Positions 5,239 to 62,982 of a DNA stretch of 64,000 bases are shown here, one piece after another. Below the pieces are notes generated by a model. That model had not been told where the DNA came from and did not search any database. It saw nothing but the letters and a program-made list of their open reading frames with translations. How positions within the stretch are numbered: the stretch's first letter is position 1; each line of letters starts with the position of its first letter. The stretch covers positions 122,865 to 186,864 of the IMG/VR virus record IMGVR_UViG_3300049793_000366; one strand, given 5' to 3'. A program made the translations under genes and the position numbers. Source of the DNA: a virus.

Positions 5239-6504
5239 ATGAAAGAAGAAAAATATATCGCAGTAATGTTTCCTTACCCATCTGGTAGCGGATTGCACAT
5301 AGGTCACTTTTATAACTATGCTATAATCGATTCATATTGTCGTTATTGGCGATATAAGGGAGTTAATGTATTTCAGCCATTTGGTTATGATTCATTTGGC
5401 TTGCCTGCTGAGAATTACGCGAAGAAAGTAGGTCGAGATCCTAAAGATGTTACATATGAAAACATCGAGAGGTTCAGAGCGCAAATGGATAAGATGGACA
5501 CTCAATATGAAGAGAAGTTGATAACATCTGACCCTTCTTACCAGAAATGGACTCAGTGGTTGTTCACTAAATTGAAAGAACACGGTTTGGTTTATAAAGC
5601 TAAAGGGGATGTGAATTACTGCCCTTCTTGTGAGACAGTATTGGCTCGTGAACAGGTTAAGAATGATAAGTGTGATAGATGTTCATCTGTTGTTGAAACC
5701 AGAAGCTTGGAGCAGTGGTATTTTAAGATAACTGCTTATAAAGACCGTTTGATTAAAAACTTGGATAAGATTGATTATCCACAAAGTACGATTAATGCTC
5801 AAAGAGCTTGGTTGGAGAATTTGCACGATTGGTGTGTTTCAAGACAACGTAGTTGGGGTTGCCCTATTCCAATAGAGGGTGAAACTGATACATTGGACAC
5901 ATTTGTAGATTCATCATTCTATTATATCAGATATTGCGACCCATATAATGACAACGAAATTTGTGCTAAAGATAAGTACAAACAAGTTGATGTTTATGTA
6001 GGTGGTAATGAACACGCTTGTATGCATTTGATTTACGCGAGGTTCATCAATATGTTCTTGTATGATATTGGTGTTGTCTCAGAAGAAGAACCATTTAAAA
6101 GAGTAATACATCAAGGTATGATTTTGAACAATGGTGCTAAAATGGCTAAATCGACTGGTAATGTTATTAATCCAGATGATTATAACTCTGATGAATTGAA
6201 ATTTTATTTGATGTTCATTGGTCACTATTTCGATGGTGGTTCTTGGTCTGACCAAAACATATCTGGTATTAAACGCTTTGTCAATAGATTTAAAGAATGG
6301 ATGTCGAGAGAGGGTGATGAAACGATTGACTTGGTTAAGTTTAAAGAAACTGTATTTGGTTATACAGAAGCTTTTAAATTCAATAAGGTTGTTAGTGAAT
6401 TCATGGTGTTGGTAAATCAGAACAGAACTAAAAATATCACAAAGGAATGTAAGAAGGAGATTGTTGATATTATTAAGATTTATATGCCATCAATAGAGGT
6501 ATAA
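5239..6504 (+). CDS. leuS: leucyl-tRNA synthetase-like protein, minimised (catalytic core only; no CP1 editing domain, truncated C-terminus)
   Basis: HIGH motif (FPYPSGSGLHIGHFYNY) and KMSKS variant (AKMAKSTGN). N-terminal ~220 aa are colinear with E. coli LeuRS (QPFGYDSFGLPAE, KITAYKDRL). The sequence then passes directly to CVSRQRSWGCPIPI where CP1 normally inserts. Only 421 aa. Confidence 0.8.
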   Translation: MKEEKYIAVMFPYPSGSGLHIGHFYNYAIIDSYCRYWRYKGVNVFQPFGYDSFGLPAENYAKKVGRDPKDVTYENIERFRAQMDKMDTQYEEKLITSDPSYQKWTQWLFTKLKEHGLVYKAKGDVNYCPSCETVLAREQVKNDKCDRCSSVVETRSLEQWYFKITAYKDRLIKNLDKIDYPQSTINAQRAWLENLHDWCVSRQRSWGCPIPIEGETDTLDTFVDSSFYYIRYCDPYNDNEICAKDKYKQVDVYVGGNEHACMHLIYARFINMFLYDIGVVSEEEPFKRVIHQGMILNNGAKMAKSTGNVINPDDYNSDELKFYLMFIGHYFDGGSWSDQNISGIKRFVNRFKEWMSREGDETIDLVKFKETVFGYTEAFKFNKVVSEFMVLVNQNRTKNITKECKKEIVDIIKIYMPSIEV

Positions 6505-26318: not shown

Positions 26319-26644
26319 AAATTCGTGATGCGTTTAATATAACGGGTAGAGGTATAGTCATTGTCGTTGATTCATTTGTTAAATGGGTACACGGTGATGA
26401 ATTAGTAATCATATTGGAGGACAGATACTTACATTATAAATTAACTGGTATAGAAAGCTTTACTCGAATGTCTGGTGTAAATGATGATTCAACCAAGAAT
26501 GGATTTTTATTAAAACCAATTGATGCTAATTTTTATTTAGGTCTGAATTCAATTGAAAAGAAGAAATACACTACTTCGCTTATTGGTAAAGAGATTATAG
26601 CAAAAGCCGAGTTAAGAAATCATAAATTAAATAATTTGCTATAA
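26312..26644 (+). CDS. hypothetical protein
   Basis: 110 aa ORF. Confidence 0.5.
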   Translation: MVKIRDAFNITGRGIVIVVDSFVKWVHGDELVIILEDRYLHYKLTGIESFTRMSGVNDDSTKNGFLLKPIDANFYLGLNSIEKKKYTTSLIGKEIIAKAELRNHKLNNLL

Positions 26645-26662
26645 ACTTGCAAATTAGATATA

Positions 26663-27301
26663 ATGTCCGTATATTTGTATATGGAAAAACATAATAAACT
26701 TCAGATTTCGCTTCGCTATTGGTTATTGGGTATAGCTCAAGAAAACCCAGAATACTACAAATGTATTGAAGCGATGGAATTTGCTTCTAAATTCCATAGT
26801 GGTAAAAGAAAAGATGGTGTAACTCCTGAGTTTACACATCAGTTGACAATCGCGCATTATATCCGAACAATCAAAAACTCTTTGATGTTTCCTGCTGACA
26901 CAATTACAACGGTTTTCTTACACGATGTACCAGAAGATTATGATGTTGCCATTCCAGAAATACAAAATCTTTTCGGTGAAAGAGTAGCACACTCTACGTG
27001 GTTACTTACAAAATTTCACAAAGGAGTTAAGAAAACTGATGAAGTCTACTTCGGTGATATGGCTAAAGATCCAATCGCATCAATTGGTAAAGGTGGTGAT
27101 AGAATGCACAATCTTCAAAGTATGGTTGGAGTGTTTACTATACCTAAGCAAAAAGACTATGTGAAAGAAGCAGAGGATAAAATTAAACCTATGATGAAAG
27201 AAGCACGTAGATTGTTTCCTCAGCAAGAATTAGCGTATGAAAATACTAAACTAATTATCAATTCACAGATTGAATTAATCAAAGCTACCTGGGTTAAATA
27301 A
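26663..27301 (+). CDS. small alarmone hydrolase (Mesh1/SpoT-like HD-domain (p)ppGpp hydrolase)
   Basis: KFHSGKRKDGVTPEFTHQLTIAHYI (H..Q.RK.G.P...H), FLHDVPEDYDV (HD) and GDRMHNL are colinear with the Mesh1/SpoT hydrolase domain. The start may be the second ATG at 26681. Confidence 0.7.
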   Translation: MSVYLYMEKHNKLQISLRYWLLGIAQENPEYYKCIEAMEFASKFHSGKRKDGVTPEFTHQLTIAHYIRTIKNSLMFPADTITTVFLHDVPEDYDVAIPEIQNLFGERVAHSTWLLTKFHKGVKKTDEVYFGDMAKDPIASIGKGGDRMHNLQSMVGVFTIPKQKDYVKEAEDKIKPMMKEARRLFPQQELAYENTKLIINSQIELIKATWVK

Positions 27302-27840
27302 TGAAGCCGAATTTAAATACAATCTCAATAGAGATACTTAAATCATTAGAACCTACCATAAAGGAGTTAGTGAAGCAACCTGAGATTTGGAATACACTTG
27401 ATGTAGATTATTTCCCACCTCGTGTTGAAAGACTCTATACTGACTATGATGGGTATCGTATCTATTTACACTATATCCACCCAACAGATAAGCCTTGTCT
27501 ATTTCACAAACACAGATGGCCTGCCGCATTTAAGCAAGTAGCTGGTGCGTATGAAATGGGTATCTCATATAGCGAAAAAGAAATTACATCAGATGAAGCA
27601 TATGACTTACCAATTTTAGCAAGATTCATTATTGGTATCAACTCTTACTATGAAATGACACAGACTGATTGTTTACATTTTGTTAGTCCTAAGGGTGAGT
27701 ATTCAGCGAGTATTATGATTACACCAAAGGATAAATATCCGGAGGCTGAATTCAGAAAAGAAGTTTTGGATAGAAAATTAGAAACATTTAGTGAACTTCG
27801 TAAGGTTACTTTACTACAATTCTTTAGTAAGGCAATTTAA
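27301..27840 (+). CDS. hypothetical protein
   Basis: 179 aa ORF. Confidence 0.55.
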   Translation: MKPNLNTISIEILKSLEPTIKELVKQPEIWNTLDVDYFPPRVERLYTDYDGYRIYLHYIHPTDKPCLFHKHRWPAAFKQVAGAYEMGISYSEKEITSDEAYDLPILARFIIGINSYYEMTQTDCLHFVSPKGEYSASIMITPKDKYPEAEFRKEVLDRKLETFSELRKVTLLQFFSKAI

Positions 27841-27844
27841 TTAA

Positions 27845-28075
27845 GTGGAGTTAACTGAGAAACAATTCGAAATACTATACGAAGCGACAGATTGGCATTT
27901 GAAATTCTATAAGACTTATTCAAATGACCCACCAACCTATGCTGAATTACTTAGATTGAATCATCAGAAAATTACAGACATTATTGAGGATGATATGAGT
28001 GAAGATGATATCACTTACTATCTCAATAAGATGAAGGATAATTATACAAATTTATACAATAGTTACAATACATGA
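27845..28075 (+). CDS. hypothetical protein
   Basis: 76 aa ORF. Confidence 0.45.
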   Translation: MELTEKQFEILYEATDWHLKFYKTYSNDPPTYAELLRLNHQKITDIIEDDMSEDDITYYLNKMKDNYTNLYNSYNT

Positions 28076-28500
28076 TTTTAAAACTAATATATTATTTAAT
28101 CTCACTACCTGTTCTGCTACACGAACATAATAGATTATTGTCCGGTAAATCTGACACCAAGCAATTGAAATCGGAAGTAGAATTGCTATCTGATATGAAT
28201 AAAAAGGGTGGTACTCTTGGTTCGATGAATGGTGCTGAGAAATCGATAGCAAAATCAATACTATATAAAATTTTATTTCAAATAACCTATATTATATGGG
28301 TTGTCGTTGGTCTAATGACCTTTAATTGGTGGATATTTACTATCATACTTCTTATGTCTCAAATACCTAAGAAGAGTACTGTGGCTGTACGTTTGGATGC
28401 CGCGCTGACTATAATTATGGTCGTTTTTGCTATATTGAATACCTATGTTTATAAAATAGATGTAACTTTTTACATAAAAACATGGCTCGGACTTTTTTAA
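28072..28500 (+). CDS. hypothetical membrane protein
   Basis: Three or four hydrophobic helices. Confidence 0.5.
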   Translation: MILKLIYYLISLPVLLHEHNRLLSGKSDTKQLKSEVELLSDMNKKGGTLGSMNGAEKSIAKSILYKILFQITYIIWVVVGLMTFNWWIFTIILLMSQIPKKSTVAVRLDAALTIIMVVFAILNTYVYKIDVTFYIKTWLGLF

Positions 28501-28527
28501 TTAGAATTAAATACATATCTTTGTAGT

Positions 28528-29016
28528 ATGAATACGTTTAAATTTAAAGAACCGTTTGTTGGAATTTTAGTGGGTCCACCGCTATCAGGTAAGTCCACAT
28601 GGCTTCGCGAGAATTTTGACGCTTCTGAAATAGTTATTATTTCTCGTGACCAAATTGTTTTGGACGTATATGGTTCTAACAATTACTCCGATGCTTTTAA
28701 TAATGTAAATCAGAAAGATGTAGATAGACAACTAATTGAAAATATCACTGATGCATCTAAAGGCACAAAAAACGTTATCATTGATATGACTCATATGTCC
28801 TCTAAAAGACGTAGATATAACCTCTCACATTTTCCGAATCACTATAAAGTAGCTTTCCTTTTCCCTATCTTGGATGAAGTTGAATATGCTCGTAGAAATG
28901 AAATGCGTAGACTTGAAGAGAATAAATGGATACCTGAACACGTAATCAAGAATATGATTTCTAGCTATCAACCAATTAAAGAAGAAGAAGGATTTAATAA
29001 AGTTATTTCAATATGA
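28528..29016 (+). CDS. P-loop kinase, polynucleotide kinase-like
   Basis: N-terminal P-loop ILVGPPLSGKSTWLRENF resembles the T4 Pnk kinase domain N-terminus. Confidence 0.5.
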   Translation: MNTFKFKEPFVGILVGPPLSGKSTWLRENFDASEIVIISRDQIVLDVYGSNNYSDAFNNVNQKDVDRQLIENITDASKGTKNVIIDMTHMSSKRRRYNLSHFPNHYKVAFLFPILDEVEYARRNEMRRLEENKWIPEHVIKNMISSYQPIKEEEGFNKVISI

Positions 29017-29462
29017 AGAAGAAAAGAATATACATAGACATGGATGGTGTTTTGTGTGATTTCTATGGTGCTGCACGAAAAGCATTAAAAGAAAACCCAA
29101 AACAACCATTTCCTCAAGCACAGTGGGGATTTTTCCTTAAGCTTAAACCAATTGATGGTGCGCTTGAAGCATTTAATTACTTATTCGAAAATTATGATGT
29201 TTGGATCTTAACCAGACCATCTACACGTAATGTTAATTGCTATACAGAAAAAGCACAATGGGTTTGGGACCACTTAGGTGAGAAAGCAGTTGATAAGCTT
29301 ATTCTATCATGTGATAAGAATTTATTAAAGGGTGATTATTTGATTGATGATAATCACTGGGATTTTGAAGGGGAGCATATTCATTTCAATACTGAAAAAT
29401 TTCCTAACTGGGAAACAGTAGTTAAGTATATAGATTCTTCTTGTAAACAACAATTAAATTAA
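29013..29462 (+). CDS. HAD-family 5'(3')-deoxyribonucleotidase-like phosphatase
   Basis: IYIDMDGVLCDF (HAD motif I DxDG) and DYLIDDN (motif IV), colinear with the NT5C family. Confidence 0.65.
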   Translation: MKKKRIYIDMDGVLCDFYGAARKALKENPKQPFPQAQWGFFLKLKPIDGALEAFNYLFENYDVWILTRPSTRNVNCYTEKAQWVWDHLGEKAVDKLILSCDKNLLKGDYLIDDNHWDFEGEHIHFNTEKFPNWETVVKYIDSSCKQQLN

Positions 29463-29468
29463 TTAACC

Positions 29469-29660
29469 TGGCGAGGTGGTGAAAGTAGACACTGGTGTTA
29501 TCTGTTAACCAATTGTAGAGAGCCGAAAGATGGGAAGCATTGACTTACTATTCGGGTAGCTTTAATAAACAGACGGAAAGACATTGGTCTTTTATTATCG
29601 AAAGATAGTTGCGAAGGAAACAACACAAATGCGGGTTCAAGCCCTGCTCTCGTCACAAAA
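29469..29660 (+). ncRNA. candidate structured RNA or tRNA 3'-half-like element (T-arm plus acceptor 3' strand)
   Basis: About 200-nt ORF-free, relatively GC-rich island. GCGGG-TTCAAGC-CCTGC resembles a T-arm with a 7-nt T-loop, followed by TCTCGTC-A. GGCGAGG at 29469-75 can pair with that strand including G-U wobbles. No canonical D or anticodon arm could be built. Confidence 0.25.
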
Positions 29661-29669
29661 AATAACAAC

Positions 29670-30071
29670 ATGGCAAACGCATGGATTCATTCAGTATCAT
29701 CAGTTAGAAAGTTTGGCGGTAAGCCAGAAGATTATTTAGAAATTCATCGTAAAATGGATTGTTCTAAATCGTATATTTCTGATAATCGACACAGAGCATT
29801 AACACATACAATGTTTTGGGTTAATGAGGTAATGGTTCCTCTATTTGGTTATACAATGACTAATAGTGATAACCGCGTAATTGCTGTCAAGGATATATGT
29901 GAAAGACATATACTCGAAGATTTCCATATGAAATTTATTCCCACCGCACAAGATTATCTTGAACACATGGAGTTCAAAGATTGGATGCAAAATGGTGTTA
30001 AAGGACACCCATCTTCTTATAATAAGCTTGCTGAAAAGAATGCTGAAAAAGAGAAAGAGACAACCGATTAA
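29670..30071 (+). CDS. hypothetical protein
   Basis: 133 aa ORF. Confidence 0.55.
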   Translation: MANAWIHSVSSVRKFGGKPEDYLEIHRKMDCSKSYISDNRHRALTHTMFWVNEVMVPLFGYTMTNSDNRVIAVKDICERHILEDFHMKFIPTAQDYLEHMEFKDWMQNGVKGHPSSYNKLAEKNAEKEKETTD

Positions 30072-30073
30072 TT

Positions 30074-30523
30074 GTGCATAAAGAACTACAGACCCTACTA
30101 CAAACCGATACTATACTTGTACGTAGGTTATCATACCGTAAAGTATTAATAGAGTATTCCGTGCCTGTTTTAGTAGAGGGTTCATCCGAACCTATTGAAC
30201 AGGTTTATATAAAACTTCGCTATCAGATAGCTCCTGAGTTTTTAGATTCAGAGAGTCAGTCTATTCTTCCCGTATCTCAAATCAGATGCTTGATAAAGGA
30301 TAAGTCCTATGACTATCCAATGCGTAATATTAATGGACGCTGGGGTGTCAAAAGAACAACAGTTAAATGTATTCAAACTTTGAATAAAACAATAAGTTTA
30401 GGAAATGTCCTTTATGTTCTAAACTTTTTTCCAACTGAATATCAAATAGTTACGCAAGAGTCGGTCAATCGAGTGACAACTAAGTTAAGAGAAATTCATT
30501 TAAGTAGATTATTAACCTCTTAA
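30074..30523 (+). CDS. hypothetical protein
   Basis: 149 aa ORF. Confidence 0.55.
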   Translation: MHKELQTLLQTDTILVRRLSYRKVLIEYSVPVLVEGSSEPIEQVYIKLRYQIAPEFLDSESQSILPVSQIRCLIKDKSYDYPMRNINGRWGVKRTTVKCIQTLNKTISLGNVLYVLNFFPTEYQIVTQESVNRVTTKLREIHLSRLLTS

Positions 30524-30533
30524 CAAATCTAAC

Positions 30534-30983
30534 ATGAACGTAACAGACGAATTAAAAAAGCTGAATGAAGAATTTGTGCAACAGAAAAAAGAGTTAATGC
30601 TTCGAACAAGAGTTTTATTCGATAAGGCATTAATTGAAGTATTTGATAAGCACGAAGGACTTGAATCATTTGGTTGGACACAGTACACTCCGTATTTCAA
30701 TGATGGTGATGAATGTACTTTCAGCGCACATACAGATTATCTCTACATCAATGGTGTAAACGAAGATGATATGGACGACATCAGTGAGAAAACATATGAC
30801 TACACAAGTGGTAAGAGATTACCGAATGAAAAATATAATAGCGCGAAAGCCGCTATGATTAGTGAAATTAAATCTATCCTTAATACTGTTGATGAGGAAT
30901 TCTTAAAAGAGACGTATAATGACCATGTTAAGGTCACTATTACTCGTGAGGGTTCATCTGTTACGAATTATAGACATGATTAG
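30534..30983 (+). CDS. hypothetical protein
   Basis: 149 aa ORF ending in TAG. Confidence 0.55.
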   Translation: MNVTDELKKLNEEFVQQKKELMLRTRVLFDKALIEVFDKHEGLESFGWTQYTPYFNDGDECTFSAHTDYLYINGVNEDDMDDISEKTYDYTSGKRLPNEKYNSAKAAMISEIKSILNTVDEEFLKETYNDHVKVTITREGSSVTNYRHD

Positions 30984-31046
30984 TGGTGTAACCGAAAAAC
31001 CGAAGAGTAGGAAATTAACAATTAAACAATTTAAAACAAAAACAAA

Positions 31047-32969
31047 ATGCACAGTATCTTAGATTTTATGAGCAATTATTGGTGGATTGGAGCTATTTTA
31101 TTAGCACTGGTTGCCTACAAATTAATTTTCCGTTTATTCGGTATCGTTATGATACCTGAGGATAAAATTGGATTAGTTACAAAGAAGTTTGTTTTACTTG
31201 GCGCGGATAAATCATTACCCGATGGTAGGATTATCGCAACTAAAGGTGAAGCAGGTTTTCAAGCAAAAGCAATGGCACCGGGTATTTATTTCTGGATGTG
31301 GCCATGGCAATATGAAATCGATATGCAAGGTTTCGTATTAATTCCTGAGGGTAAAATTGGTTTAGTGGCTGCGAGAGACGGTGTTGTACCTCAAAATGGT
31401 AGAATACTTGGTCGTAAAGTATCTTGTGATAACTTCCAAGATAGTGAGCAGTTCTTAACTAATGGTGGACAGAAAGGTCGTCAGTCGGCATATCTTGTTG
31501 CTGGTTCTTACCGTATCAATACACACTTATTTGAAGTGTCTGTTGTTGACCAGGTTAAGATTAATGAGAACATGGTGGGTATTGTTACTACTCTTGATGG
31601 TGAGCCTCTTGATGATGGACAAATCGCTGCTAAAGTAAATGAAGCAGGGCATAATAAGTTCCAAAACTTTGATGTGTTTCTTGAGAATGGTGGACAAAGA
31701 GGTTTACAACAAGACGTAATTCTTGCTGGTACTTATAACATCAATCCTTGGGCTGTTCAGATTGAAGAAGTTCCAATGACAAGTATCGCAATTGGATTTG
31801 TTGGTGTTGTTATCTCTTATGTAGGTAGCGAAGGACAAGATGTATCTGGTACTGCTTTCAAACATGGTAACATCGTTAGTAAAGGACAGAAGGGTGTTTG
31901 GAATGAACCATTAGGTCCAGGAAAATATCCTATCAATACATATGCTTATCGCATTGAAGTTGTTCCAACAACAAACCTTGTATTAAACTGGGCAAGCGCG
32001 AGAACTGAATCACACAACTTAGATAAGAACTTAAGTACTATCACAGTACGTTCTAAAGATGGTTTCCCATTCAATTTAGATGTGTCTCAAATTATTCACA
32101 TTCCAATGACAGAAGCACCTAAAGTAATTGCGCGATTTGGTGCTATGCAAAACTTAGTTTCTCAAGTACTTGAGCCAACTATTGGTAACTATTTCCGTAA
32201 CTCTGCTCAAGATTCAGATGTAATCTCTTTCTTAAGCTCTCGTAAAGAGCGTCAGGAGTCTGCTAAACAGCATATCTCTAAAGTTCTTGAAGAGTATAAC
32301 GTTCACGCTGTTGATACGCTTATAGGTGATATTACACCTCCTGAGTCACTTATGAAAACTCTTACTGACCGTAAGATTGCTGAAGAGCAAAAAGTAACAT
32401 ATGAAACTCAGCGTAAAGCACAAATCGAGCGTCAATCTTACGAGAAAGAAAATGCTGTTGCTGATATGCAAAAGGATGTAGTTAAAGCTGACCAGTCAGT
32501 ATTAATTGCTGATAAAACTGCTCAAGCTTCTATTAAGCAAGCAGAAGGTAATGCTAAGTCAGTAGAGCTTAACGCTAATGCTGATGCGAATGCTACTAAA
32601 TTACGTGCTGGTGCCGAAGCAGAAAGAATTACCTTAACTGGTAATGCCGAAGCAGAAAGAACATTAGCGATTGGTAAGTCTAACGCAGAAGCTTATAAAC
32701 TTGCTGTTGAAGCAATGGGTGAAGAAAACTTTACTCGCCTTAAAGTAACAGAAGCTATTGGTATTAATAAAGTACAGGTAATTCCTAACGTACTTATCAA
32801 TGGTGGTGGTAACGGAAGCGGTTCATTAGAAGGTATGATGAGCCTTCAAATGATGGAAATGATGAGCGAAAAGGGTTACTTAAATAAAAAAGACATCAAG
32901 GATGTCAAAGAAGTAACATCTAAAGCTGTTGTTGAAGAGAAAGCAGAAGACGACAAGAAGAAGAAGTAA
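31047..32969 (+). CDS. flotillin-like SPFH/band-7 domain membrane protein
   Basis: N-terminal TM helix WWIGAILLALVAYKLIF. Central SPFH-like region. C-terminal Ala/Glu-rich coiled coil (AEAERITLTGNAEAERTLAIGKSNAEAYKLA) ending in GGGNGSG, as in YqiK/flotillin. Confidence 0.6.
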   Translation: MHSILDFMSNYWWIGAILLALVAYKLIFRLFGIVMIPEDKIGLVTKKFVLLGADKSLPDGRIIATKGEAGFQAKAMAPGIYFWMWPWQYEIDMQGFVLIPEGKIGLVAARDGVVPQNGRILGRKVSCDNFQDSEQFLTNGGQKGRQSAYLVAGSYRINTHLFEVSVVDQVKINENMVGIVTTLDGEPLDDGQIAAKVNEAGHNKFQNFDVFLENGGQRGLQQDVILAGTYNINPWAVQIEEVPMTSIAIGFVGVVISYVGSEGQDVSGTAFKHGNIVSKGQKGVWNEPLGPGKYPINTYAYRIEVVPTTNLVLNWASARTESHNLDKNLSTITVRSKDGFPFNLDVSQIIHIPMTEAPKVIARFGAMQNLVSQVLEPTIGNYFRNSAQDSDVISFLSSRKERQESAKQHISKVLEEYNVHAVDTLIGDITPPESLMKTLTDRKIAEEQKVTYETQRKAQIERQSYEKENAVADMQKDVVKADQSVLIADKTAQASIKQAEGNAKSVELNANADANATKLRAGAEAERITLTGNAEAERTLAIGKSNAEAYKLAVEAMGEENFTRLKVTEAIGINKVQVIPNVLINGGGNGSGSLEGMMSLQMMEMMSEKGYLNKKDIKDVKEVTSKAVVEEKAEDDKKKK

Positions 32970-32989
32970 TAAACTTCAATAATTATATT

Positions 32990-33024
32990 AAAACCCTTAG
33001 ATAGAAATATCTAAGGGTTTTTTA
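32990..33024 (+). terminator. rho-independent terminator
   Basis: CCCTTAG...CTAAGGG hairpin followed by TTTTTT. Confidence 0.6.
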
Positions 33025-48282: not shown

Positions 48283-49482
48283 ATGATAATTCAGTCACTT
48301 CTCGATTTAGACTATTACAAACTAACAATGGGTCAATTAGCTTTCTTAAGCTTCCCTGATGTTGAAATTGAAGCCGCCTTTAAAAACAGAAAATCAAATA
48401 TTCGATTAGCGGATATTATCCCGGTTGACCGATTGATATCCGAACTCAATCATGTTAGAACTCTGGTTCTTAGTAAAGAACAGTTAAAGTTCGTTGAAAA
48501 ACAGGGCATATTTAAGCCAGAATACCGAGAGTATCTATATCAGATAAACCGTAGCAATCCTCTATCCGAAGTACGAGTAGAGGTTGTTGATGGTCAATTT
48601 GATGTGAGAACAAAGGGTAAATGGCCTAATGCCATTTTGTGGGAAACAATAGTATTAGCTGTTATTAACGAGCTATATTATGAGTATAAATACCCAAATC
48701 TCTCTTATGATGAGGGTCTTACTAGACTTGCGAATAAGATTAAAATTCTTAAAAAGCATCCACAAATTAAATTCTCTGACTTCGGTACTCGAAGAAGAGC
48801 ATCAAGAACATGGCAAGCACTTGTTGTTAATAAATTAAGACAAGCATTACCTAATCAGTTTCTTGGAACATCGAATGTTCAGTTGGCTATGGATTATAAC
48901 ATAACTCCAATTGGAACATTCGCACATGAAATGCCAATGGTTGCTTCTGGTGTTTGGTATGATACTGATGTTGAATTAAAAGCATCACATGGTAGAGTAC
49001 TTGATATGTGGTATGAGTTATATGATGTTAAATTATCAATTGCTCTTACTGATACATTTGGAACCAAATTCTTCTTTGAAGACTTCGTAGACCGCGCACC
49101 AGTTTGGAATGGTTTACGACACGATTCTGGTGATCCATTTGAATTTGGTCATAAAGTATTAGCTTACTACGCATCACTGGGTATTGATTCTAAAACAAAA
49201 ACTATTGTGTTTAGTGATGGTTTGGATTTAGATATCATCATCCGACTCGAAGCAATATTTGGTAAATTAATTAAATGCGTTTTCGGTTGGGGTACGACTC
49301 TGACAAATGACATTGGGTATGAAACATTATCTATTGTTATGAAAGCCATCCGTGCTAATGGTAATGAATTGGTTAAGCTTTCTGATAACTTAAATAAAGC
49401 TACTGGTTCCGATGCTACTAAATCTCGATACATTAGTGTATTTGGGTATGACAATCAAAAGCGTGAAGAGTGTGTAGTCTAA
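48283..49482 (+). CDS. pncB: nicotinate phosphoribosyltransferase
   Basis: Colinear with E. coli PncB: SLLDLDYYKLTM, FGTRRRAS, GLRHDSGDPFEFG, IVFSDGLDLD, VKLSDN. Confidence 0.85.
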   Translation: MIIQSLLDLDYYKLTMGQLAFLSFPDVEIEAAFKNRKSNIRLADIIPVDRLISELNHVRTLVLSKEQLKFVEKQGIFKPEYREYLYQINRSNPLSEVRVEVVDGQFDVRTKGKWPNAILWETIVLAVINELYYEYKYPNLSYDEGLTRLANKIKILKKHPQIKFSDFGTRRRASRTWQALVVNKLRQALPNQFLGTSNVQLAMDYNITPIGTFAHEMPMVASGVWYDTDVELKASHGRVLDMWYELYDVKLSIALTDTFGTKFFFEDFVDRAPVWNGLRHDSGDPFEFGHKVLAYYASLGIDSKTKTIVFSDGLDLDIIIRLEAIFGKLIKCVFGWGTTLTNDIGYETLSIVMKAIRANGNELVKLSDNLNKATGSDATKSRYISVFGYDNQKREECVV

Positions 49483-49508
49483 TAAGTAAAACCTAAAAAC
49501 AAAAACAC

Positions 49509-49808
49509 ATGGAATATAACGGTCAAACAAAAAAGGAATACGAGAAAAACTTCACACGTATTCGTGATATTATCACTAAGGCTGATGGTGATAAGGAAAA
49601 AGCTCTTCGACTTGCTAAAACACAAGCAGACAGAATAGAAGATGAATATAAAGCAATCAATCGTTCAAATGCCGCAGTAAAGCTTGGACATGAGTGGTTA
49701 GCTGACCCTTTCTTCGAAAGAGCTTATGAGCTTGGTGCTGTGGGTAAAATGGAGTACCGCGAATACAAGCTTAAGAAATTATTTGAAATGCAAGAAGAAG
49801 GAGCCTAA
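49509..49808 (+). CDS. hypothetical protein
   Basis: 99 aa ORF. Confidence 0.5.
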   Translation: MEYNGQTKKEYEKNFTRIRDIITKADGDKEKALRLAKTQADRIEDEYKAINRSNAAVKLGHEWLADPFFERAYELGAVGKMEYREYKLKKLFEMQEEGA

Positions 49809-50011
49809 TGAGACAGCAGATTCTTAAATACTTACCTATTAAAATTGCAATATTATTCTCTTTTATTACTGTGCCTCTTATCGCAGCAATATTCGTTAAT
49901 AGTGTTGTAATTTCTTACTTAATTGGTGCTATTTTTTTCGGTTTGCTACTGTTAGTTTACTATATAGTGAAGGGAAGGAAATCTCACCCAGAATTAAAAA
50001 ATAAAATTTGA
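49808..50011 (+). CDS. small membrane protein
   Basis: Two hydrophobic helices in 67 aa. Confidence 0.45.
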   Translation: MRQQILKYLPIKIAILFSFITVPLIAAIFVNSVVISYLIGAIFFGLLLLVYYIVKGRKSHPELKNKI

Positions 50012-50012
50012 A

Positions 50013-50270
50013 ATGAAAGAAGTAAGAATTCTATTAACGGAAGAAACATTCACACTTTTGTGTAAGCAGGGCTATGTTGCATATAAGAATAATATGTTTA
50101 GCGTATCTCAGATAAACATCACAAAAGCCGACTTGGAGAAGTTGATAAGCGGTGATATCATCGATAAACCACAGGATGGTGTTGACTTTAAAATTGCGTT
50201 AATGGATATCGGTTATGATAGGATTTTACCAATAATTAAACGTTCACCATTCTATGGTAATTCTATATAA
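50013..50270 (+). CDS. hypothetical protein
   Basis: 85 aa ORF. Confidence 0.45.
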   Translation: MKEVRILLTEETFTLLCKQGYVAYKNNMFSVSQINITKADLEKLISGDIIDKPQDGVDFKIALMDIGYDRILPIIKRSPFYGNSI

Positions 50271-50535
50271 AAATTTAGTATTTTGTTCAAGTATATATGG
50301 TACTAAACTGACTGGTAGAAAGGATGTGAAATTTTTAGAAGTACATTATGGTAGCGATAAAGATTTTATTGAAAAGTATCAGAAAATTTACCCAAATCAT
50401 CGAAAGGGAATATTCTTAGATGCTAGAAAACCTGTACCGAGAGATTTCAGACTCGATGTTGAACATATGATTAAGTCAGACCCACTGTTAATTCAAACAA
50501 TTCGTGATTTAAAGCTTGAAGAGTTATGTCAATAG
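50254..50535 (+). CDS. hypothetical protein
   Basis: 93 aa ORF ending in TAG. Confidence 0.45.
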   Translation: MVILYKNLVFCSSIYGTKLTGRKDVKFLEVHYGSDKDFIEKYQKIYPNHRKGIFLDARKPVPRDFRLDVEHMIKSDPLLIQTIRDLKLEELCQ

Positions 50536-50906
50536 AAGAGAAAATATTCATATATGGGTTTATGTTTATTATGCTTGGTGTTCTATACTTCATCGGATTT
50601 TTTATACGTGACTATAAACAAAAGTATCTACGTAATAAAAGAATGCAGAGGTTGAATTGGAATAAGGTATTGAAAATATTCGCGTGTGTTACTGGATTTT
50701 GTTTACTTGGTTCTATCAACAATAAAATGTTTACTTGGTATGAAGCTCCGATAATGGGATTTACTATCACTGCTGTGATTTTGTTTGCTGGTATATTTAG
50801 ACCAGAGAATGATACAAATGAGTATAAACAATTCGATAATCCTGAGTTTAAGGTATATGAGAAAGCACATCAGAGAGATAGAAAAATTAAAGATATTTTA
50901 AAATGA
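50526..50906 (+). CDS. hypothetical membrane protein
   Basis: Three hydrophobic helices in 126 aa. Confidence 0.5.
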   Translation: MSIEEKIFIYGFMFIMLGVLYFIGFFIRDYKQKYLRNKRMQRLNWNKVLKIFACVTGFCLLGSINNKMFTWYEAPIMGFTITAVILFAGIFRPENDTNEYKQFDNPEFKVYEKAHQRDRKIKDILK

Positions 50907-51457
50907 AGGTAGGATTATTCTTTGGGTCATTTAACCCAATACACTTAGGTCACTTAGAGATTGCTGAGAAATCAGCTAAATATGTAGATGAAGTTTGGTT
51001 CATTGTTTCACCTCACAATCCATTTAAGGATCCGAGTATGTTGATAAACCAAACTTCTCGATTAGAAATGGTTAAGTTAGCCGTTGAGTCTACACCGCAT
51101 TATAAAGTTAGTGATGTTGAATTTAATTTACCAACACCTACGAGAACTCATGTTACTTTAGAAAAATTAATCGAAGAACACGAGCATGAATTTTTATTGA
51201 TATTTGGTTCTGATTGTGTGAATACATTACACACATGGGAAAGAGGTGATTGGATTTTAGAAACATTTCCTATCATCGCATTTAAGAGAGAATCTGAGGA
51301 TGTAAATCCTGAAATTTATAAAAAGTTAATATCAGAAACTCATATATCATCTACGATAATACGAAATAATATTATAAATGGTTTGCCGGTTGATAGTCTT
51401 CTACCAACTTTAGTTGAGCAATACATATATAATAATGGATTATGGTCACACAAGTAA
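50903..51457 (+). CDS. nadD: nicotinate/nicotinamide mononucleotide adenylyltransferase
   Basis: GSFNPIHLGHL (HxGH nucleotidyltransferase motif) and C-terminal ISSTIIR motif. Confidence 0.8.
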   Translation: MKVGLFFGSFNPIHLGHLEIAEKSAKYVDEVWFIVSPHNPFKDPSMLINQTSRLEMVKLAVESTPHYKVSDVEFNLPTPTRTHVTLEKLIEEHEHEFLLIFGSDCVNTLHTWERGDWILETFPIIAFKRESEDVNPEIYKKLISETHISSTIIRNNIINGLPVDSLLPTLVEQYIYNNGLWSHK

Positions 51458-51711
51458 ATAAAGTACTACACTTTGATAATTCGAGAATAGAACTATCGCA
51501 AACTGGTCTTTGTTTTACTGCCTTTTTCTACACGAATGATAGCGAGAAACCTTGTTTTCATTTTAAATTTTATTCGGATGGAAAGTCGATAATTGAGGAT
51601 TTTAAGAAGGAAGCTCGTAACTATATGTCAACCAGTATATTGACTGATTTTATCAACAAAAACCCTGATGTATTACGGACAATTAATTTTGATAATTTAA
51701 TTGTTAATTGA
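51442..51711 (+). CDS. hypothetical protein
   Basis: 89 aa ORF. Confidence 0.45.
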   Translation: MVTQVNKVLHFDNSRIELSQTGLCFTAFFYTNDSEKPCFHFKFYSDGKSIIEDFKKEARNYMSTSILTDFINKNPDVLRTINFDNLIVN

Positions 51712-51730
51712 GAAAAAGTTTGTATATTTG
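51701..51730 (+). promoter_or_regulatory. Bacteroidetes-type promoter (TTG -33 element, 19-nt spacer, TATATTTG -7 element)
   Basis: TTG at 51701-03 and TATATTTG at 51723-30, about 35 nt upstream of the pncA start. Confidence 0.4.
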
Positions 51731-51765
51731 TAATTGATTAATGGACACTAAAAACCAAAACATAT

Positions 51766-52383
51766 ATGTTTAAATTAAAACCAAATACTCGTTCATTGTT
51801 CTGGAATGTTGACACTCAAGTTGACTTCATGAATTCAGAAGGTAAGTTATACGTTACTGACGCAGAACAAATCAAAGACACTTTAGCAAAAATAACCAAG
51901 TTCGCTAAAGACAACAATGTTCAGGTTGTTAATACTGCTGATTGGCATTATGCTGATTCTGCTGAGTTATCCGAAACACCTGATTTTATAAATACCTTCC
52001 CACCACACTGTATGGCTAATACGCCTGGTGCTGAGTTGATACCGGAAACAAAACCAGAAAAGTATGATTCTATCATTGATTGGAAAAATCCAAAATGTGA
52101 TATTAAAACTGACTCTACAAACTTTTTAGTCTTGAAAGATAAGTTTGATGTCTTCACTGGAAATCAGTTCACTAAAAGATTAATTGATGCTTTAAACCCA
52201 GATGTTGTTTACGTCTATGGTGTAGCTACAAATGTCTGTGTTGACTGTGCTGTTAACGGTTTACTTGATAACGGTTATAAAGTGGTTGTGTTTGAAGATG
52301 CTATTAAAGAGCTTCCAAATATACCATCACCAATACAAAATTGGATAGACAAAGGAGCAGAAATTATTAAATTCACAAACTAA
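51766..52383 (+). CDS. pncA: nicotinamidase (isochorismatase family)
   Basis: Isochorismatase-fold layout: N-terminal D..Q.DF, conserved Lys region (VLKDKFDVF), catalytic Cys in GVATNVCVDCAV. Confidence 0.75.
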   Translation: MFKLKPNTRSLFWNVDTQVDFMNSEGKLYVTDAEQIKDTLAKITKFAKDNNVQVVNTADWHYADSAELSETPDFINTFPPHCMANTPGAELIPETKPEKYDSIIDWKNPKCDIKTDSTNFLVLKDKFDVFTGNQFTKRLIDALNPDVVYVYGVATNVCVDCAVNGLLDNGYKVVVFEDAIKELPNIPSPIQNWIDKGAEIIKFTN

Positions 52384-52395
52384 AATATAAATACT

Positions 52396-53250
52396 ATGAA
52401 TACGAAAAAAGTATCAAATCACATCACCAATTGGTTAAAAGATTTTGCATTAAATACTAAACAAAACGGTTACGTTATCGGAGTATCTGGTGGAATTGAC
52501 TCCGCAGTTGTTTCGACACTATGCGCCCGTACTGGATTACCACTTATTGTTGTGAGTATGCCTATTCATCAAGAAGCTAATCAAGTTTCTCGCGCACAAG
52601 AGCATATGGATTGGTTGAAAAAAAATTATCCAAATGTAACACAGTTTGAATTTGACTTAACATCAGTTTATGATTCATTCGTAACTAAGTTAGATGGTAA
52701 AACACATTTTATTTCAAAGCCTGAGCATGATACACAGGTTGCTGATAAAATGTTCTTAACACTTGCGAATACTCGCTCTCGTTTGAGAATGACAACACTT
52801 TATTCACTTGCCGGATTAAACAATATGCTTGTTGCTGGTACTGGTAATAAAGTAGAAGACTTTGGTGTAGGATTCTTCACTAAGTATGGTGATGGTGGAA
52901 TTGATGTATCACCAATCGGTGAGTTGATGAAATCTGAGGTATACATATTGGGTGCTGAATTAGGTATAAACCAAGCAATACTTTCAGCAAGACCTACTGA
53001 TGGTCTTTGGGATGATGGTAGAACAGATGAAGACCAAATTGGTGCTACTTATGATGAACTTGAGTGGGCTATGGGTGTTCAAGAAGAATTGGGAAATAAT
53101 CCTGAGACTTTATACGAAATGAACGAAAGACAAACGATAGTGTGGAATATTTATTTGTCTCGACACACCGCTAACTCACATAAAATGCAAATGCCACCAG
53201 TTTGCTCATTAAAAGGAATTAAATATGATGAAGAAGTTGTTGCACAGTAA
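52396..53250 (+). CDS. nadE: NH3-dependent NAD+ synthetase
   Basis: PP-loop GVSGGIDSAV and GFFTKYGDGGIDVSPIG, colinear with E. coli NadE. Confidence 0.85.
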   Translation: MNTKKVSNHITNWLKDFALNTKQNGYVIGVSGGIDSAVVSTLCARTGLPLIVVSMPIHQEANQVSRAQEHMDWLKKNYPNVTQFEFDLTSVYDSFVTKLDGKTHFISKPEHDTQVADKMFLTLANTRSRLRMTTLYSLAGLNNMLVAGTGNKVEDFGVGFFTKYGDGGIDVSPIGELMKSEVYILGAELGINQAILSARPTDGLWDDGRTDEDQIGATYDELEWAMGVQEELGNNPETLYEMNERQTIVWNIYLSRHTANSHKMQMPPVCSLKGIKYDEEVVAQ

Positions 53251-54917: not shown

Positions 54918-55355
54918 ATGGAAATTTTAAATAGAAGAGCATATTACGATTATAGCATCATAGAACATTATGAAGCGGGTATTATGTTGACTGGTTCGGA
55001 GATAAAGTCAATACGAGGTGGTGAAGCAAACTTAAATGAAGCATATGTATTCATCAATAACGGCGAGGTATTCGTTAAGAATATGTACATTTCTAAATTT
55101 GAACAATCTTCATATTTGAACCATGAAGAAAAGCGTGATAGAAAATTATTACTTTCTAAAACTCAAATTTTAAAAATTGAAAAATATCTACAAACAAAAG
55201 GTACTGTGATTATACCGATAAAAGTATTTTTCAGCAAACGCTGGGCAAAACTAAAAATCGGAGTTGGTCGTGGTAAGAAAACCTACGATAAGAGAGAATC
55301 GATAAAAGAAAGAGAATCAAAAAGAGAATTGTCTCGACTGAACTCGAAAGTATAG
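54918..55355 (+). CDS. smpB: SsrA-binding protein SmpB
   Basis: Colinear with E. coli SmpB: NRRAYYDY, EAGIMLTGSEIKSIRGGEANL, GEVFV, KLKIGVGRGKKTYDKRESIKERE. Stop is TAG then TAA. Confidence 0.8.
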   Translation: MEILNRRAYYDYSIIEHYEAGIMLTGSEIKSIRGGEANLNEAYVFINNGEVFVKNMYISKFEQSSYLNHEEKRDRKLLLSKTQILKIEKYLQTKGTVIIPIKVFFSKRWAKLKIGVGRGKKTYDKRESIKERESKRELSRLNSKV

Positions 55356-60195: not shown

Positions 60196-61209
60196 TTATT
60201 CAGCGAATGAAAGGTTAAGCTGTTCGATTGATTGTTTCTCTTCAAGACTAATAATAGCCCTTGCTATCATTTTGTCGCATGATATAACGTGTAACTTGTC
60301 GGATTGTTTATTAACAGCTATTGTGTCTGATATAATCAATTCAGTTAATACAGAAGAGTTAAGATTCTCGATAGCATTTCCGGATAGAATACCATGTGTA
60401 GCAATAGCACGTACTGACCTAGCACCATTTTCCATTACCAACTCACTTGCTTTCTTTAAAGTACCTAATGTATCAGCCATATCATCTATGATAACAACAT
60501 TGCGGTCTTTTACATCAGCACCCATTAATTCCATTGAATGAATTTCATTTGGTTTAACTCGGCGTTTATTTATCTGAGCGAAGTGTGCTTCTGGGAAATA
60601 TTTAGCAAAGTCTAATGCTCTTTTTACACCACCTTGGTCTGGTGACATTATTGTTAGATTTTCAAGAGCAAGTGACTTGATGTAGTTTGTGAAAATTTTA
60701 CCACCATTTAAGTGAATAACTGGTATGTTGAAGAATCCTTGAATTGCAGATGCGTGTAAATCAATTGTGATGATTCGTGTTGCTCCACCTCTTTCATAGG
60801 CATCAGCCATAACCCTTGCTCCAATTGATGAACGAAGGTGGTCTACCTTATCTTGACGTGAGTAACCATAATATGGTGTCACGAGTGTTATTTCTTTAGC
60901 ACCAGCTCTTTTAGCAGCATCTAATATCAACATAGTTTCCACGATAGAATCAGAAGAACTTGTTGTTTGTATAATATAGATATCTTTACCACGCACAGAC
61001 TCATTGAAAGTTGGGAATATCTCACCATCTTTGAATTTCTCAATCTTTAAATCACCAAGACCCGTACTTTGTGGTGTCAGTAGACTTGTAGCTTGTTGCG
61101 ACAATACGATTTTATTAATACTATCAGCGAGTGATTCGCTTGATGTTCCAGAAAAAATAGTGAATGTGTTCATAATAGTGGTATTAATTTTTTGATGAAA
61201 TGTTTTCAT
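60196..61209 (-). CDS. prs: ribose-phosphate pyrophosphokinase (PRPP synthetase)
   Basis: Colinear with E. coli Prs: FKDGEIF, YYGYSRQDK, IITIDLHASAIQGFFNIPVIHL, PRPP-binding loop VVIIDDMADTLGTL. Confidence 0.85.
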   Translation of the reverse strand: MKTFHQKINTTIMNTFTIFSGTSSESLADSINKIVLSQQATSLLTPQSTGLGDLKIEKFKDGEIFPTFNESVRGKDIYIIQTTSSSDSIVETMLILDAAKRAGAKEITLVTPYYGYSRQDKVDHLRSSIGARVMADAYERGGATRIITIDLHASAIQGFFNIPVIHLNGGKIFTNYIKSLALENLTIMSPDQGGVKRALDFAKYFPEAHFAQINKRRVKPNEIHSMELMGADVKDRNVVIIDDMADTLGTLKKASELVMENGARSVRAIATHGILSGNAIENLNSSVLTELIISDTIAVNKQSDKLHVISCDKMIARAIISLEEKQSIEQLNLSFAE

Positions 61210-61705: not shown

Positions 61706-62054
61706 TTAGAACTTCATTAAGTTTGTTTCCTCTGTAAATTGACTTATTTGGTTTAGTCGTTTTATATATCTTATTAAGCCAAGTACCTAAGTCTAAAGCT
61801 TGTCTTGAATTATAATAATGTGAAGACCTCTCGCTATAAAATTTGCTATGAATATCTTCTTGTTCATGTTCCTCGAAAGAGTCCCACCATACAGGATCTA
61901 TTAGCATTTTAACCTGAGTACCAAATGTTTTTAATTGCCTTTTCTTCTCACGTCTTCTCGCTCTATCATTATGATATTGAGAATCTTCGTTGTCTTGCTT
62001 TTCTCTCCAACGTTGTACTTGAGGTTCATTTAAATATCTGTTATTTTTCATCAT
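61689..62054 (-). CDS. hypothetical basic protein
   Basis: 121 aa, Arg/Lys/Glu-rich N-terminus. Confidence 0.5.
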   Translation of the reverse strand: MMKNNRYLNEPQVQRWREKQDNEDSQYHNDRARRREKKRQLKTFGTQVKMLIDPVWWDSFEEHEQEDIHSKFYSERSSHYYNSRQALDLGTWLNKIYKTTKPNKSIYRGNKLNEVLSDEKI

Positions 62055-62685
62055 TCAGTTTTGCTTTTTTCCAATTTTTAGTCCAGTGAACATCTGTTTG
62101 TACGTGTCCTTTTCTTACCCACTTCATAACACTTGTTGAAAAATCATCGTTGTGAAATGCGTCAGCTTTTCTTATAACAATACCTTCTCTTTTTCCACCA
62201 AGTATAGACTCTTTTTGTGATAACTCTTCTACGGTGCTTCTGAGTTCTTTCTCATTGGTGATAATACCATTGAAGAGTACGGGTGTTGTCGGAAGGTCTA
62301 AAAGAAATGAATATTCTTCAACAGTAGACCATGGTACCCATATTTCACCATCGCGTACACCGAACATATAAAAATATGATTTTAGATTTGAATATTCGAT
62401 AGAGTGTATACCATACATATTCTCACCGAAGATGTAAGTATCTAAATCTATTGAAAGTTTTATGCGTTGCCATATATCCCACATTGGTCTATCCCAAGCA
62501 TTTTCGGAGTGAGCGGCATGAGAACGTCCGAATACACCGTATCTTTCAAGTGTTGTGTTGGAGCCATCAAGTTTTTCAGTTATGATAACTGGTATATTCA
62601 ATAGTGAATCTACTGAATGTGAAATACGGTCATCCGATGTAGCACCGGGTGAGAACGGTAAGTGGTATGTTCTTGCGTATTTCAT
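62041..62685 (-). CDS. ATP-dependent RNA ligase (Rnl2-like nucleotidyltransferase domain)
   Basis: Motif I EKLDGSN (KxDG), motif III IFGENMYG, motif IV REGIVIRK and motif V VMKWVRKGH, in the same order and spacing as the T4 Rnl2 NTase domain. Confidence 0.6.
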   Translation of the reverse strand: MKYARTYHLPFSPGATSDDRISHSVDSLLNIPVIITEKLDGSNTTLERYGVFGRSHAAHSENAWDRPMWDIWQRIKLSIDLDTYIFGENMYGIHSIEYSNLKSYFYMFGVRDGEIWVPWSTVEEYSFLLDLPTTPVLFNGIITNEKELRSTVEELSQKESILGGKREGIVIRKADAFHNDDFSTSVMKWVRKGHVQTDVHWTKNWKKAKLNDEK

Positions 62686-62748: not shown

Positions 62749-62982
62749 TTAAGCGTCTTTTTCTAATATTTCTGATAATCTTCTATCTCTATCTTCAAGT
62801 CTCTCTTCTATTATCCGTAACCTATCCGCTGCATTTCTATCCATAATTTCATACCAAGTGCCTGATTTATAGCTCATTACACGCTCTGATTTTATATCAA
62901 AGTAACAATCACCGTCCACTGGATTCGTGGGTTGTGATTGGTGGAATGTAACATCCACGAGTGTATAATCACTAATAGACAT
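62749..62982 (-). CDS. hypothetical protein
   Basis: 77 aa ORF. Confidence 0.45.
   Translation of the reverse strand: MSISDYTLVDVTFHQSQPTNPVDGDCYFDIKSERVMSYKSGTWYEIMDRNAADRLRIIEERLEDRDRRLSEILEKDA

Follow-up and report, generated by a model that had tools for sequence, protein, structure and literature searches.

We investigated a pair of adjacent genes in a 64,000-nucleotide (nt) stretch of viral DNA, hereafter the window (positions 122,865 to 186,864 of IMG/VR record IMGVR_UViG_3300049793_000366). A sequence-only reading had described the pair as a P-loop kinase and an HAD phosphatase, forming either a split polynucleotide kinase-phosphatase for the repair of cleaved transfer RNAs (tRNAs) or a module that adjusts deoxynucleoside monophosphate (dNMP) pools. 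Both open reading frames (ORFs) were recovered together with the motifs previously noted in them, i.e. GPPLSGKSTW at residues 16-25 of the kinase, DMDGVL at residues 9-14 and DYLIDDN at residues 108-114 of the phosphatase, and the ATGA at which the two frames overlap (Table 1). The pair lies within a co-directional block of genes and is followed, in a 207-nt gap, by a tRNA-like RNA.

Table 1. Coordinates of the features discussed, in window positions unless a related locus (L number) is named.
Feature	Coordinates	Strand	Details
Pnk/PSTK-clade P-loop kinase, stand-alone	28528..29016	+	162 aa
Key residues of the kinase			P-loop K22/S23; catalytic D41 (SRD motif); D86-x-T88; lid R123/R127; C-terminal EGF motif
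NT5C-family HAD phosphatase, shortened cap	29013..29462	+	149 aa
ATGA stop/start overlap of kinase and HAD ORFs	29013..29016	+	kinase TGA 29014-29016, HAD ATG 29013-15
tRNA-Leu-like shell with structured insert	29470..29656	+	ARAGORN with intron option
RNA-ligase nucleotidyltransferase domain, stand-alone	62041..62685	-	214 aa; PF09414 1.2e-25
RelA/SpoT-type HD hydrolase, small-alarmone-hydrolase-like	26663..27301	+	Pfam HD_4 3.8e-8; NCBIfam spoT_relA 8e-13
DUF6915 protein	29670..30071	+	133 aa; Pfam PF21866 6.6e-35
phrog_9564/10375-like protein	30534..30983	+	149 aa; PHROG 2.6e-18; travels with DUF6915
SPFH/Band-7 (flotillin-like) membrane protein, last gene of the block	31047..32969	+	640 aa; Pfam Band_7 9.9e-24
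Intrinsic-terminator-like hairpin, strong, closing the block	32990..33021	+	14-bp stem and T run
Long-tRNA loci	L010 4457-4719, 5665-5925; L011; L012 8231-8847; L034 6192-6310
DUF6915/phrog_9564-like loci	L024 9644-9943 and 8978-9487; L033 5001-5820; L031 6001-6315; L032 5001-5633

Families and catalytic residues of the two enzymes

The kinase is an ordinary member of a known family. It matched AAA_33 in Pfam (6e-17), PHROG 505, annotated as 'polynucleotide kinase' (5e-17), and, as its one match in NCBIfam, bacterial Pnkp (2.9e-5). Its closest relative by sequence among solved structures was Pnkp1 of the Pnkp1-Rnl-Hen1 repair complex (5.7e-7), followed by T4 Pnk and the kinase of Clostridium thermocellum Pnkp at marginal E-values (0.14 for T4 Pnk), and fold comparison placed it in the Pnk clade, with the Pnk fold present. 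Searches returned 840 members of the family, mostly of 161-165 residues and on contigs of up to 711 kb. K22, S39-R40-D41, D86, T88, K93, R95, R123, N124, R127 and the C-terminal EGF were invariant in the 24-28 members compared. D41 aligned with D35 of T4 Pnk, and R123 and R127 with its R122 and R126, and the P-loop Lys and Ser were also matched.

The family differs from its characterised relatives in two respects. Firstly, the enzyme is a single domain beside an HAD gene, whereas T4 Pnkp (PDB 1ltq, 1ly1) has its kinase fused to a phosphatase, and C. thermocellum Pnkp (4gp6) and Capnocytophaga Pnkp1 (4xrp) either combine the kinase with metallophosphoesterase and ligase domains or bind Rnl and Hen1. 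Secondly, the Arg that follows the catalytic Asp is absent. Pnkp1 and T4 Pnk both retain an Arg at the position of T4 Arg38, unlike the kinase family studied here, in which this position is V44 in the window protein and hydrophobic (V, L, M or I) in every member aligned. In T4 Pnk, Arg38 contacts the 3' phosphate of the 5'-terminal nucleotide of the acceptor; because its equivalent is absent, acceptor binding in this family must differ from that in T4 Pnk. We conclude that the kinase probably acts on the 5' ends of RNA, as a polynucleotide kinase. The P-loop (K22/S23) and the lid residues R123 and R127 would hold a nucleoside triphosphate, and Asp41 would most likely activate the acceptor, probably the 5'-OH of an RNA, to receive the phosphoryl group. 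The window kinase itself was identical to a JGI protein encoded on a contig of 711,805 bp, and the window belongs to a huge phage. An abundant family of more than 800 huge-phage proteins, currently recorded as 'predicted kinase', can thus be named Pnk-like.

The phosphatase is likewise an ordinary member of a known family, and its earlier assignment to the 5'(3')-deoxyribonucleotidases was borne out. It matched Pfam NT5C (PF06941) at 9.5e-14 and 52.1 bits, against a curated cut-off of 24.8, and human cdN/mdN in the PDB by sequence at ~1e-17, which were also its nearest relatives by fold comparison, T4 Pnkp not being among its top 60 fold matches. Thus, it is not a Pnkp-type phosphatase, and no C-terminal DxDGT HAD 3'-phosphatase is fused to the kinase. 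The longer HAD homologues were checked for a kinase fusion and none was found, only short uncharacterised tails. HAD motifs I-IV (D9, D11, T67/S70, K102/K106 and D112/D113) were invariant or nearly so across homologues, and a segment NPxQxYPQxQWGFF was also conserved. F17, the Phe after DMDGVLxD (aromatic, F or Y, family-wide), and the invariant F41, the second Phe of GFF, aligned with the two Phe residues of cdN/mdN that sandwich the base.

Approximately 28 cap residues (cdN 40-67), a segment that includes the base- and sugar-specificity loop, have no counterpart in the window protein, and its predicted model contains a single cap helix (17-27) with short turns in place of the full helical cap. 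This 'mini-cap' NT5C enzyme would be expected to retain nucleoside-phosphate binding, in a site predicted to be more open than that of human cdN/mdN. In the mechanism that we propose, nucleophilic attack of Asp9 on the phosphate would give an aspartyl-phosphate intermediate, Asp11 would serve as acid/base, D112 and D113 would hold Mg2+, and F17 and F41 would stack on the nucleobase. The likeliest substrates, judging from the cdN/mdN relatives and from homologues in Vibrio T4-like phages, would be free (deoxy)nucleoside 5'- or 3'-monophosphates. We therefore rate a role as mononucleotidase as the somewhat more probable one, and a role as RNA-end phosphatase as rather unlikely.

The Vibrio homologues bear on this point. 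In Vibrio phage nt-1 the mini-cap NT5C gene (~40% identical) abuts the gene for an SbcD-like gp47, and many of the 49 Vibrio T4-like records that hold the gene have an annotated gp47/46 DNA-nuclease neighbour. KVP40-like Vibrio phages with a mini-cap NT5C presumably already possess Pnkp. Thus, the proposal of an effect on dNMP pools suits the phosphatase, although it does not suit a kinase that looks polynucleotide-type.

We additionally identified an error in the public JGI gene call for the phosphatase, which starts at Met10 and gives a protein of 140 aa, losing the nucleophile Asp9 (window 29013-29039). Because Asp9 is invariant in 28 homologues, the longer, overlapping ORF with its ATG at 29013 is the correct one. 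The gene start in this mini-cap NT5C family, which exceeds 880 proteins, is thus mis-called in at least one public record.

Linkage of the genes and their relation to RNA repair

The 4-nt overlap between the two genes was conserved in L016, L017/18 and L019. Overlaps of this length occur at 6 of the 77 same-strand junctions in the window, and overlaps of any length at 25 of the 77 (greedy gene map). As overlaps are so common here, this one is weak evidence of coupling, and the description of the pair as translationally coupled over-reads it.

The two genes were adjacent in the closest relatives, all with a kinase 78-81% identical: a 709-kb NCBI contig (containing L016) and three short contigs. 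In 15 related loci, phosphatase and kinase were not linked. The three closest deposited genomes, of 635-642 kb (LR756502, LR745206 and LR756504), matched the window only at these two genes, which lie at 418 kb and 98 kb in LR745206 and at 568 kb and 125 kb in LR756504; in LR756502 the kinase was present and a copy of the HAD gene was not detected. A further three loci with the kinase and seven with the HAD were identified in IMG/VR, and in none of them did the partner lie within 6 kb. Compared with deposited phages at the DNA level, the window showed neither near nor distant similarity.

In the sub-clade in which the pair is linked, the block contains, in order, a guanylate-kinase-like gene, CoaE, the HD_4 gene, the kinase, NT5C, a variable slot, DUF6915 and Band_7, with other genes between CoaE and HD_4, HD_4 and the kinase, and DUF6915 and Band_7; S1 and UVR proteins follow Band_7 on the opposite strand. 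Other huge phages have either no gene or one small gene from CoaE to DUF6915, without kinase or HAD between them, indicating that this junction is a variable hot spot. The adjacency of kinase and phosphatase is thus limited to one huge-phage sub-clade, and can be explained by shared descent.

The sequence-only reading had completed its repair pathway with an Rnl2-like RNA ligase. The window does encode a PF09414 nucleotidyltransferase domain with the motif I (KxDG) sequence EKLDGSN. It does not, however, contain the Rnl2 C-terminal domain, as the Pfam match (32-190) covers nearly all of its 214 residues, and solved structures hold no close relative of it. The gene is the sole ligase of the window, none being found at 26-33.5 kb, and lies 33 kb from the pair on the opposite strand, flanked by MazG-like and phosphoribosyl pyrophosphate (PRPP) synthetase genes. 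Homologues of this ligase co-occur with the kinase in LR756502, LR745206, LR756504 and Xanthomonas phage XacN1 and are never adjacent to it. Of the three genes of the proposed pathway, kinase and ligase thus co-occur in three related complete huge-phage genomes, and the phosphatase was not detected in one of these, LR756502.

We tentatively favour, at a confidence that falls somewhat short of even, the reading that the kinase and phosphatase are real, co-transcribed yet separate enzymes, encoded in an accessory operon of a ~710-kb phage. As the kinase is likely RNA-directed and the phosphatase likely mononucleotide-directed, the pair would not amount to a genuine T4-type Pnkp in split form. 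As to the proposed T4 Pnkp/Rnl-style pathway, its kinase half fares well, given the Pnk-clade fold, the relationship to Pnkp1, T4 Pnk and C. thermocellum Pnkp, and the distant homologues beside RNA ligases: at ~30% identity, kinase homologues directly follow an RNA ligase in Ruegeria phage RpAliso (with a 4-nt overlap) and in Bacillus phage vB_BcoS-136. In XacN1, a kinase homologue precedes genes for a methyltransferase and a metallophosphoesterase. The phosphatase half of the pathway is not borne out in its original form, given the NT5C type of the enzyme and its unlinked or undetected homologues.

The chief rival to separate enzymes is a split end-healing pair, in which the kinase would act on the 5'-OH, the open-capped HAD would remove a 3' (or 2') phosphate, and the PF09414 ligase would seal the ends. 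This would place the genes in an RNA-repair or tRNA-maintenance operon, analogous to the predicted Band-7/b7a-tRNA systems. We consider it possible and the less probable of the two. Several observations weigh in its favour, and hence against separate enzymes. The NT5C enzymes cdN and mdN also hydrolyse 3'-phosphates, and the active site opened by the lost cap segment could admit a polymer end. The pair is still adjacent where the kinase has diverged to 65% identity (L036-L038), and there is no strong terminator from the kinase to the Band-7 gene, a strong one following the latter. The tRNA islands of L010-L012 and of Yersinia phage fHe-Yen9-04 contain HAD homologues, a position that may simply reflect accessory-gene islands. 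In Sinorhizobium phage phiN3 the kinase is followed by a hypothetical gene, a 'metallophosphoesterase', a second hypothetical gene, DUF6915 (1.5e-21), a homologue of the 30534-30983 gene (4e-8) and a 'stomatin/prohibitin', which looks like the order of the window with an in-situ displacement of the phosphoesterase. Similarly, the kinase of cyanophage B23 lies ~2 kb upstream of the DUF6915 pair, and in Bacillus phage Tsamsa a PF09414-like ligase lies two genes before DUF6915. The co-occurrence of kinase and ligase in LR756502, LR745206, LR756504 and XacN1 points the same way.

Two published comparisons also favour a split pair. In a published survey (Iyer et al. 2021, PMC7824862), jumbo phages are described as having RNA-repair sets of Pnk kinases, HAD phosphatases that stand alone and ATP-grasp ligases (Rnl1/Rnl2), which the window resembles in its Pnk-like kinase, stand-alone HAD, ATP-grasp-type RNA ligase and genes for nicotinamide adenine dinucleotide (NAD) salvage; the same survey names a Pnk-fused HAD family ('PKN-HAD') and a 'Swiss-army-knife' HAD family. 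A Band-7 protein and a tRNA-like non-coding RNA have been predicted to aid RNA ligation (10.1101/312249), in the Band-7/b7a-tRNA and Ro/Y-RNA (YrlA) repair modules proposed by Burroughs and Aravind in 2016. The window shares with those modules an SPFH/Band-7 gene, an RNA with a tRNA-like shell and candidate RNA-end enzymes in a co-directional block. It differs in that neither RtcB nor another ligase is adjacent, and the linkage occurs in one phage sub-clade only. The RNA also departs from a simple tRNA mimic, as its shell carries the 115-nt insert and is lost in L016, and it lies 1.4 kb before the Band-7 gene.

Against the split pair, the phosphatase is of the NT5C type, with base-stacking residues that align with those of cdN/mdN, and its mini-cap family occurs beside DNA nucleases in phages that presumably have Pnkp already. 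The kinase, phosphatase and DUF6915/Band-7 genes lie at separate places in most related huge phages, the HAD gene was not detected in LR756502, and the ligase is distant and on the other strand. The kinase is without an Arg38 equivalent. Moreover, the phiN3 'metallophosphoesterase' rests on the depositor's name and a sub-threshold Pfam match, and its 'stomatin/prohibitin' gave no Pfam Band_7 match, having only the depositor's name and a weak similarity to the window protein. The hypothetical protein between kinase and metallophosphoesterase in phiN3 was considered as a HAD homologue and rejected on comparison.

A further alternative, which we consider improbable, is that both enzymes act on small nucleotides, as a substrate cycle or filter on pools of dNMPs, nucleoside monophosphates, NAD precursors or alarmones. 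It would fit the nucleotide-type enzymes among the neighbours in the block (guanylate-kinase-like, CoaE-like and HD_4), and the full NAD salvage set and PRPP synthetase in the window. The variable slot of L025 also holds a DUF4406/DUF1937 gene, of families that are presumably nucleoside-deoxyribosyltransferase-like. The polynucleotide-type appearance of the kinase argues against it.

If the split pair were true, an NT5C nucleotidase would be a third phage RNA-repair phosphatase, besides the Pnkp-type HAD and the metallophosphoesterase, and would provide a handle on the uncharacterised DUF6915/Band-7 set found near RNA-repair genes of unrelated phages. If the genes are independent, which we judge likelier, the result is a routine annotation of two families.

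A tRNA-like RNA downstream of the pair

The least ordinary item of the locus is the RNA that follows the phosphatase gene. Its shell consists of an acceptor stem, a 3-bp D stem with a degenerate D loop, and a T arm, and a conserved 115-nt insert (29502-29616) occupies the anticodon loop. Default ARAGORN found no tRNA or transfer-messenger RNA (tmRNA) in the whole window. Both ends of the RNA resemble tRNA-Leu of L010/L011, and the splice point is ambiguous in the sequence, giving an anticodon of GAA, CAA, CUA or CUG depending on where the insert ends.

Four copies of the RNA were identified. Exact-core searches in viral and metagenome contigs gave no others, nhmmer over the collected loci returned the four known copies only, and Rfam contained no family for it (whole window at the gathering threshold, and 29400-29750 at E up to 10). 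In the alignment of the four, conservation is higher in the insert than in the shell, and in the 709-kb relative (L016 6920-7100) a plain 12-bp stem replaces the shell, with the insert kept. In the consensus fold 96.5% of cells were paired and 6 pairs changed on both sides, 3 of them in a single hairpin, and helix 8 covaries. These changes are suggestive of a conserved structure, in four sequences only; the minimum free energy of the RNA alone was not significant (z = -1.4).

A tmRNA reading was rejected, as the acceptor carries G2-U71, not G3-U70, and no tmRNA match was found. A group I intron was rejected on the size of the insert and the absence of an Rfam match, and a coding insert on the 1-4-nt indels by which the relatives differ. 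We read the element as a structured RNA on a decaying tRNA scaffold, which might be removed as an intron, persist as a stable RNA or serve as a cofactor associated with Band-7.

The RNA also bears on the reading that the kinase is tRNA-directed (PSTK/KTI12 type), or acts on this adjacent tRNA-like RNA, with the phosphatase reversing or editing the product. The neighbourhood itself would suggest such a substrate. We nonetheless rate this reading as having little probability: a protein of 162 residues in total has no C-terminal tRNA-binding domain as found in PSTK and KTI12, L016 retains both kinase and HAD despite its decayed tRNA shell, and in L036-L038 a protein gene (an ORF of ~160 aa) takes the slot of the RNA.

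In related huge phages, many tRNA genes were called with lengths of 82-90 nt, against 72-76 nt for the usual tRNAs of the amino acids concerned (Table 1). Several of these long tRNAs were called as 'tRNA-???' with 2- or 4-base anticodons, and a 'tRNA-Pseudo' of 119 nt lies close to the NT5C gene of Yersinia phage fHe-Yen9-04. The phage tRNAs of these lineages may thus commonly carry short insertions.

Neighbouring genes and other features of the window

A promoter-like site (26636-26664) lies at the start of the HD hydrolase gene. Small alarmone hydrolases reportedly reverse the pyrophosphorylation of tRNA CCA ends by toxSAS (10.1101/2021.04.30.441581), and by analogy the HD hydrolase may be a counter-defence gene.

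Homologues of the phrog_9564/10375-like gene were identified by tblastn directly 3' of DUF6915 in phiN3, B23 and Streptomyces phage LukeCage, and ~0.7-1.5 kb 3' of it, with 1-2 ORFs between, in L025/26 and L029/30. The two genes recur as a pair in unrelated phages (phiN3, B23, Tsamsa, LukeCage and huge phages), where their neighbours include Pnk-like kinases, a gene resembling an RNA ligase, a Ro-like protein, arrays of tRNAs or Band-7 genes (Table 1). In Streptomyces phages DUF6915 lies near a Ro-like protein and tRNAs, and in LukeCage it separates the Ro-like protein from the tRNA array. Some DUF6915 proteins carry the JGI label 'cysteinyl-tRNA synthetase'. The Band-7 gene is kept in L016-19, L027/28 and L036-38.

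The whole block (26663-33021) could be read as a single, previously undescribed operon for tRNA or RNA-end maintenance, which would counter host toxins directed at tRNAs and rely on a ligase acting in trans, a proposal that we consider unlikely. Its parts would be the HD hydrolase, the Pnk-clade kinase, an open-capped NT5C enzyme recruited as RNA 3'-phosphatase, the RNA on its tRNA scaffold, the DUF6915 and phrog_9564 proteins, and SPFH/Band-7; the phiN3, B23 and Tsamsa loci would, just as doubtfully, be variants made from swapped parts.

We additionally noted features of the wider window and its relatives. A 421-aa class-I aminoacyl-tRNA-synthetase-like protein with a MetRS/LeuRS-type domain (5239-6504, +; Pfam 2e-42) is much shorter than the cellular enzymes, and a Nudix hydrolase is also encoded. 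The NAD salvage set appears complete, with NAPRTase-like, NMN adenylyltransferase-like, nicotinamidase-like and NAD synthetase-like genes named from motifs only, and the PRPP synthetase and MazG-like pyrophosphohydrolase at the flanks of the ligase were both confirmed by Pfam; together these genes occupy 48283-53250, 60196-61209 and 62972-63631. LR756504 encodes a 167-aa GGQ protein (L004 5086-5589), release-factor/ArfB-like by eye, 600 nt downstream of its kinase homologue. SmpB is encoded at 54918-55355 (+; Pfam 6e-53), with no tmRNA detected by ARAGORN or Rfam in the 64-kb window, and an SmpB homologue lies upstream of the NT5C gene in relatives, adjacent to it in L012 and at ~0.65 kb in L013-L015.

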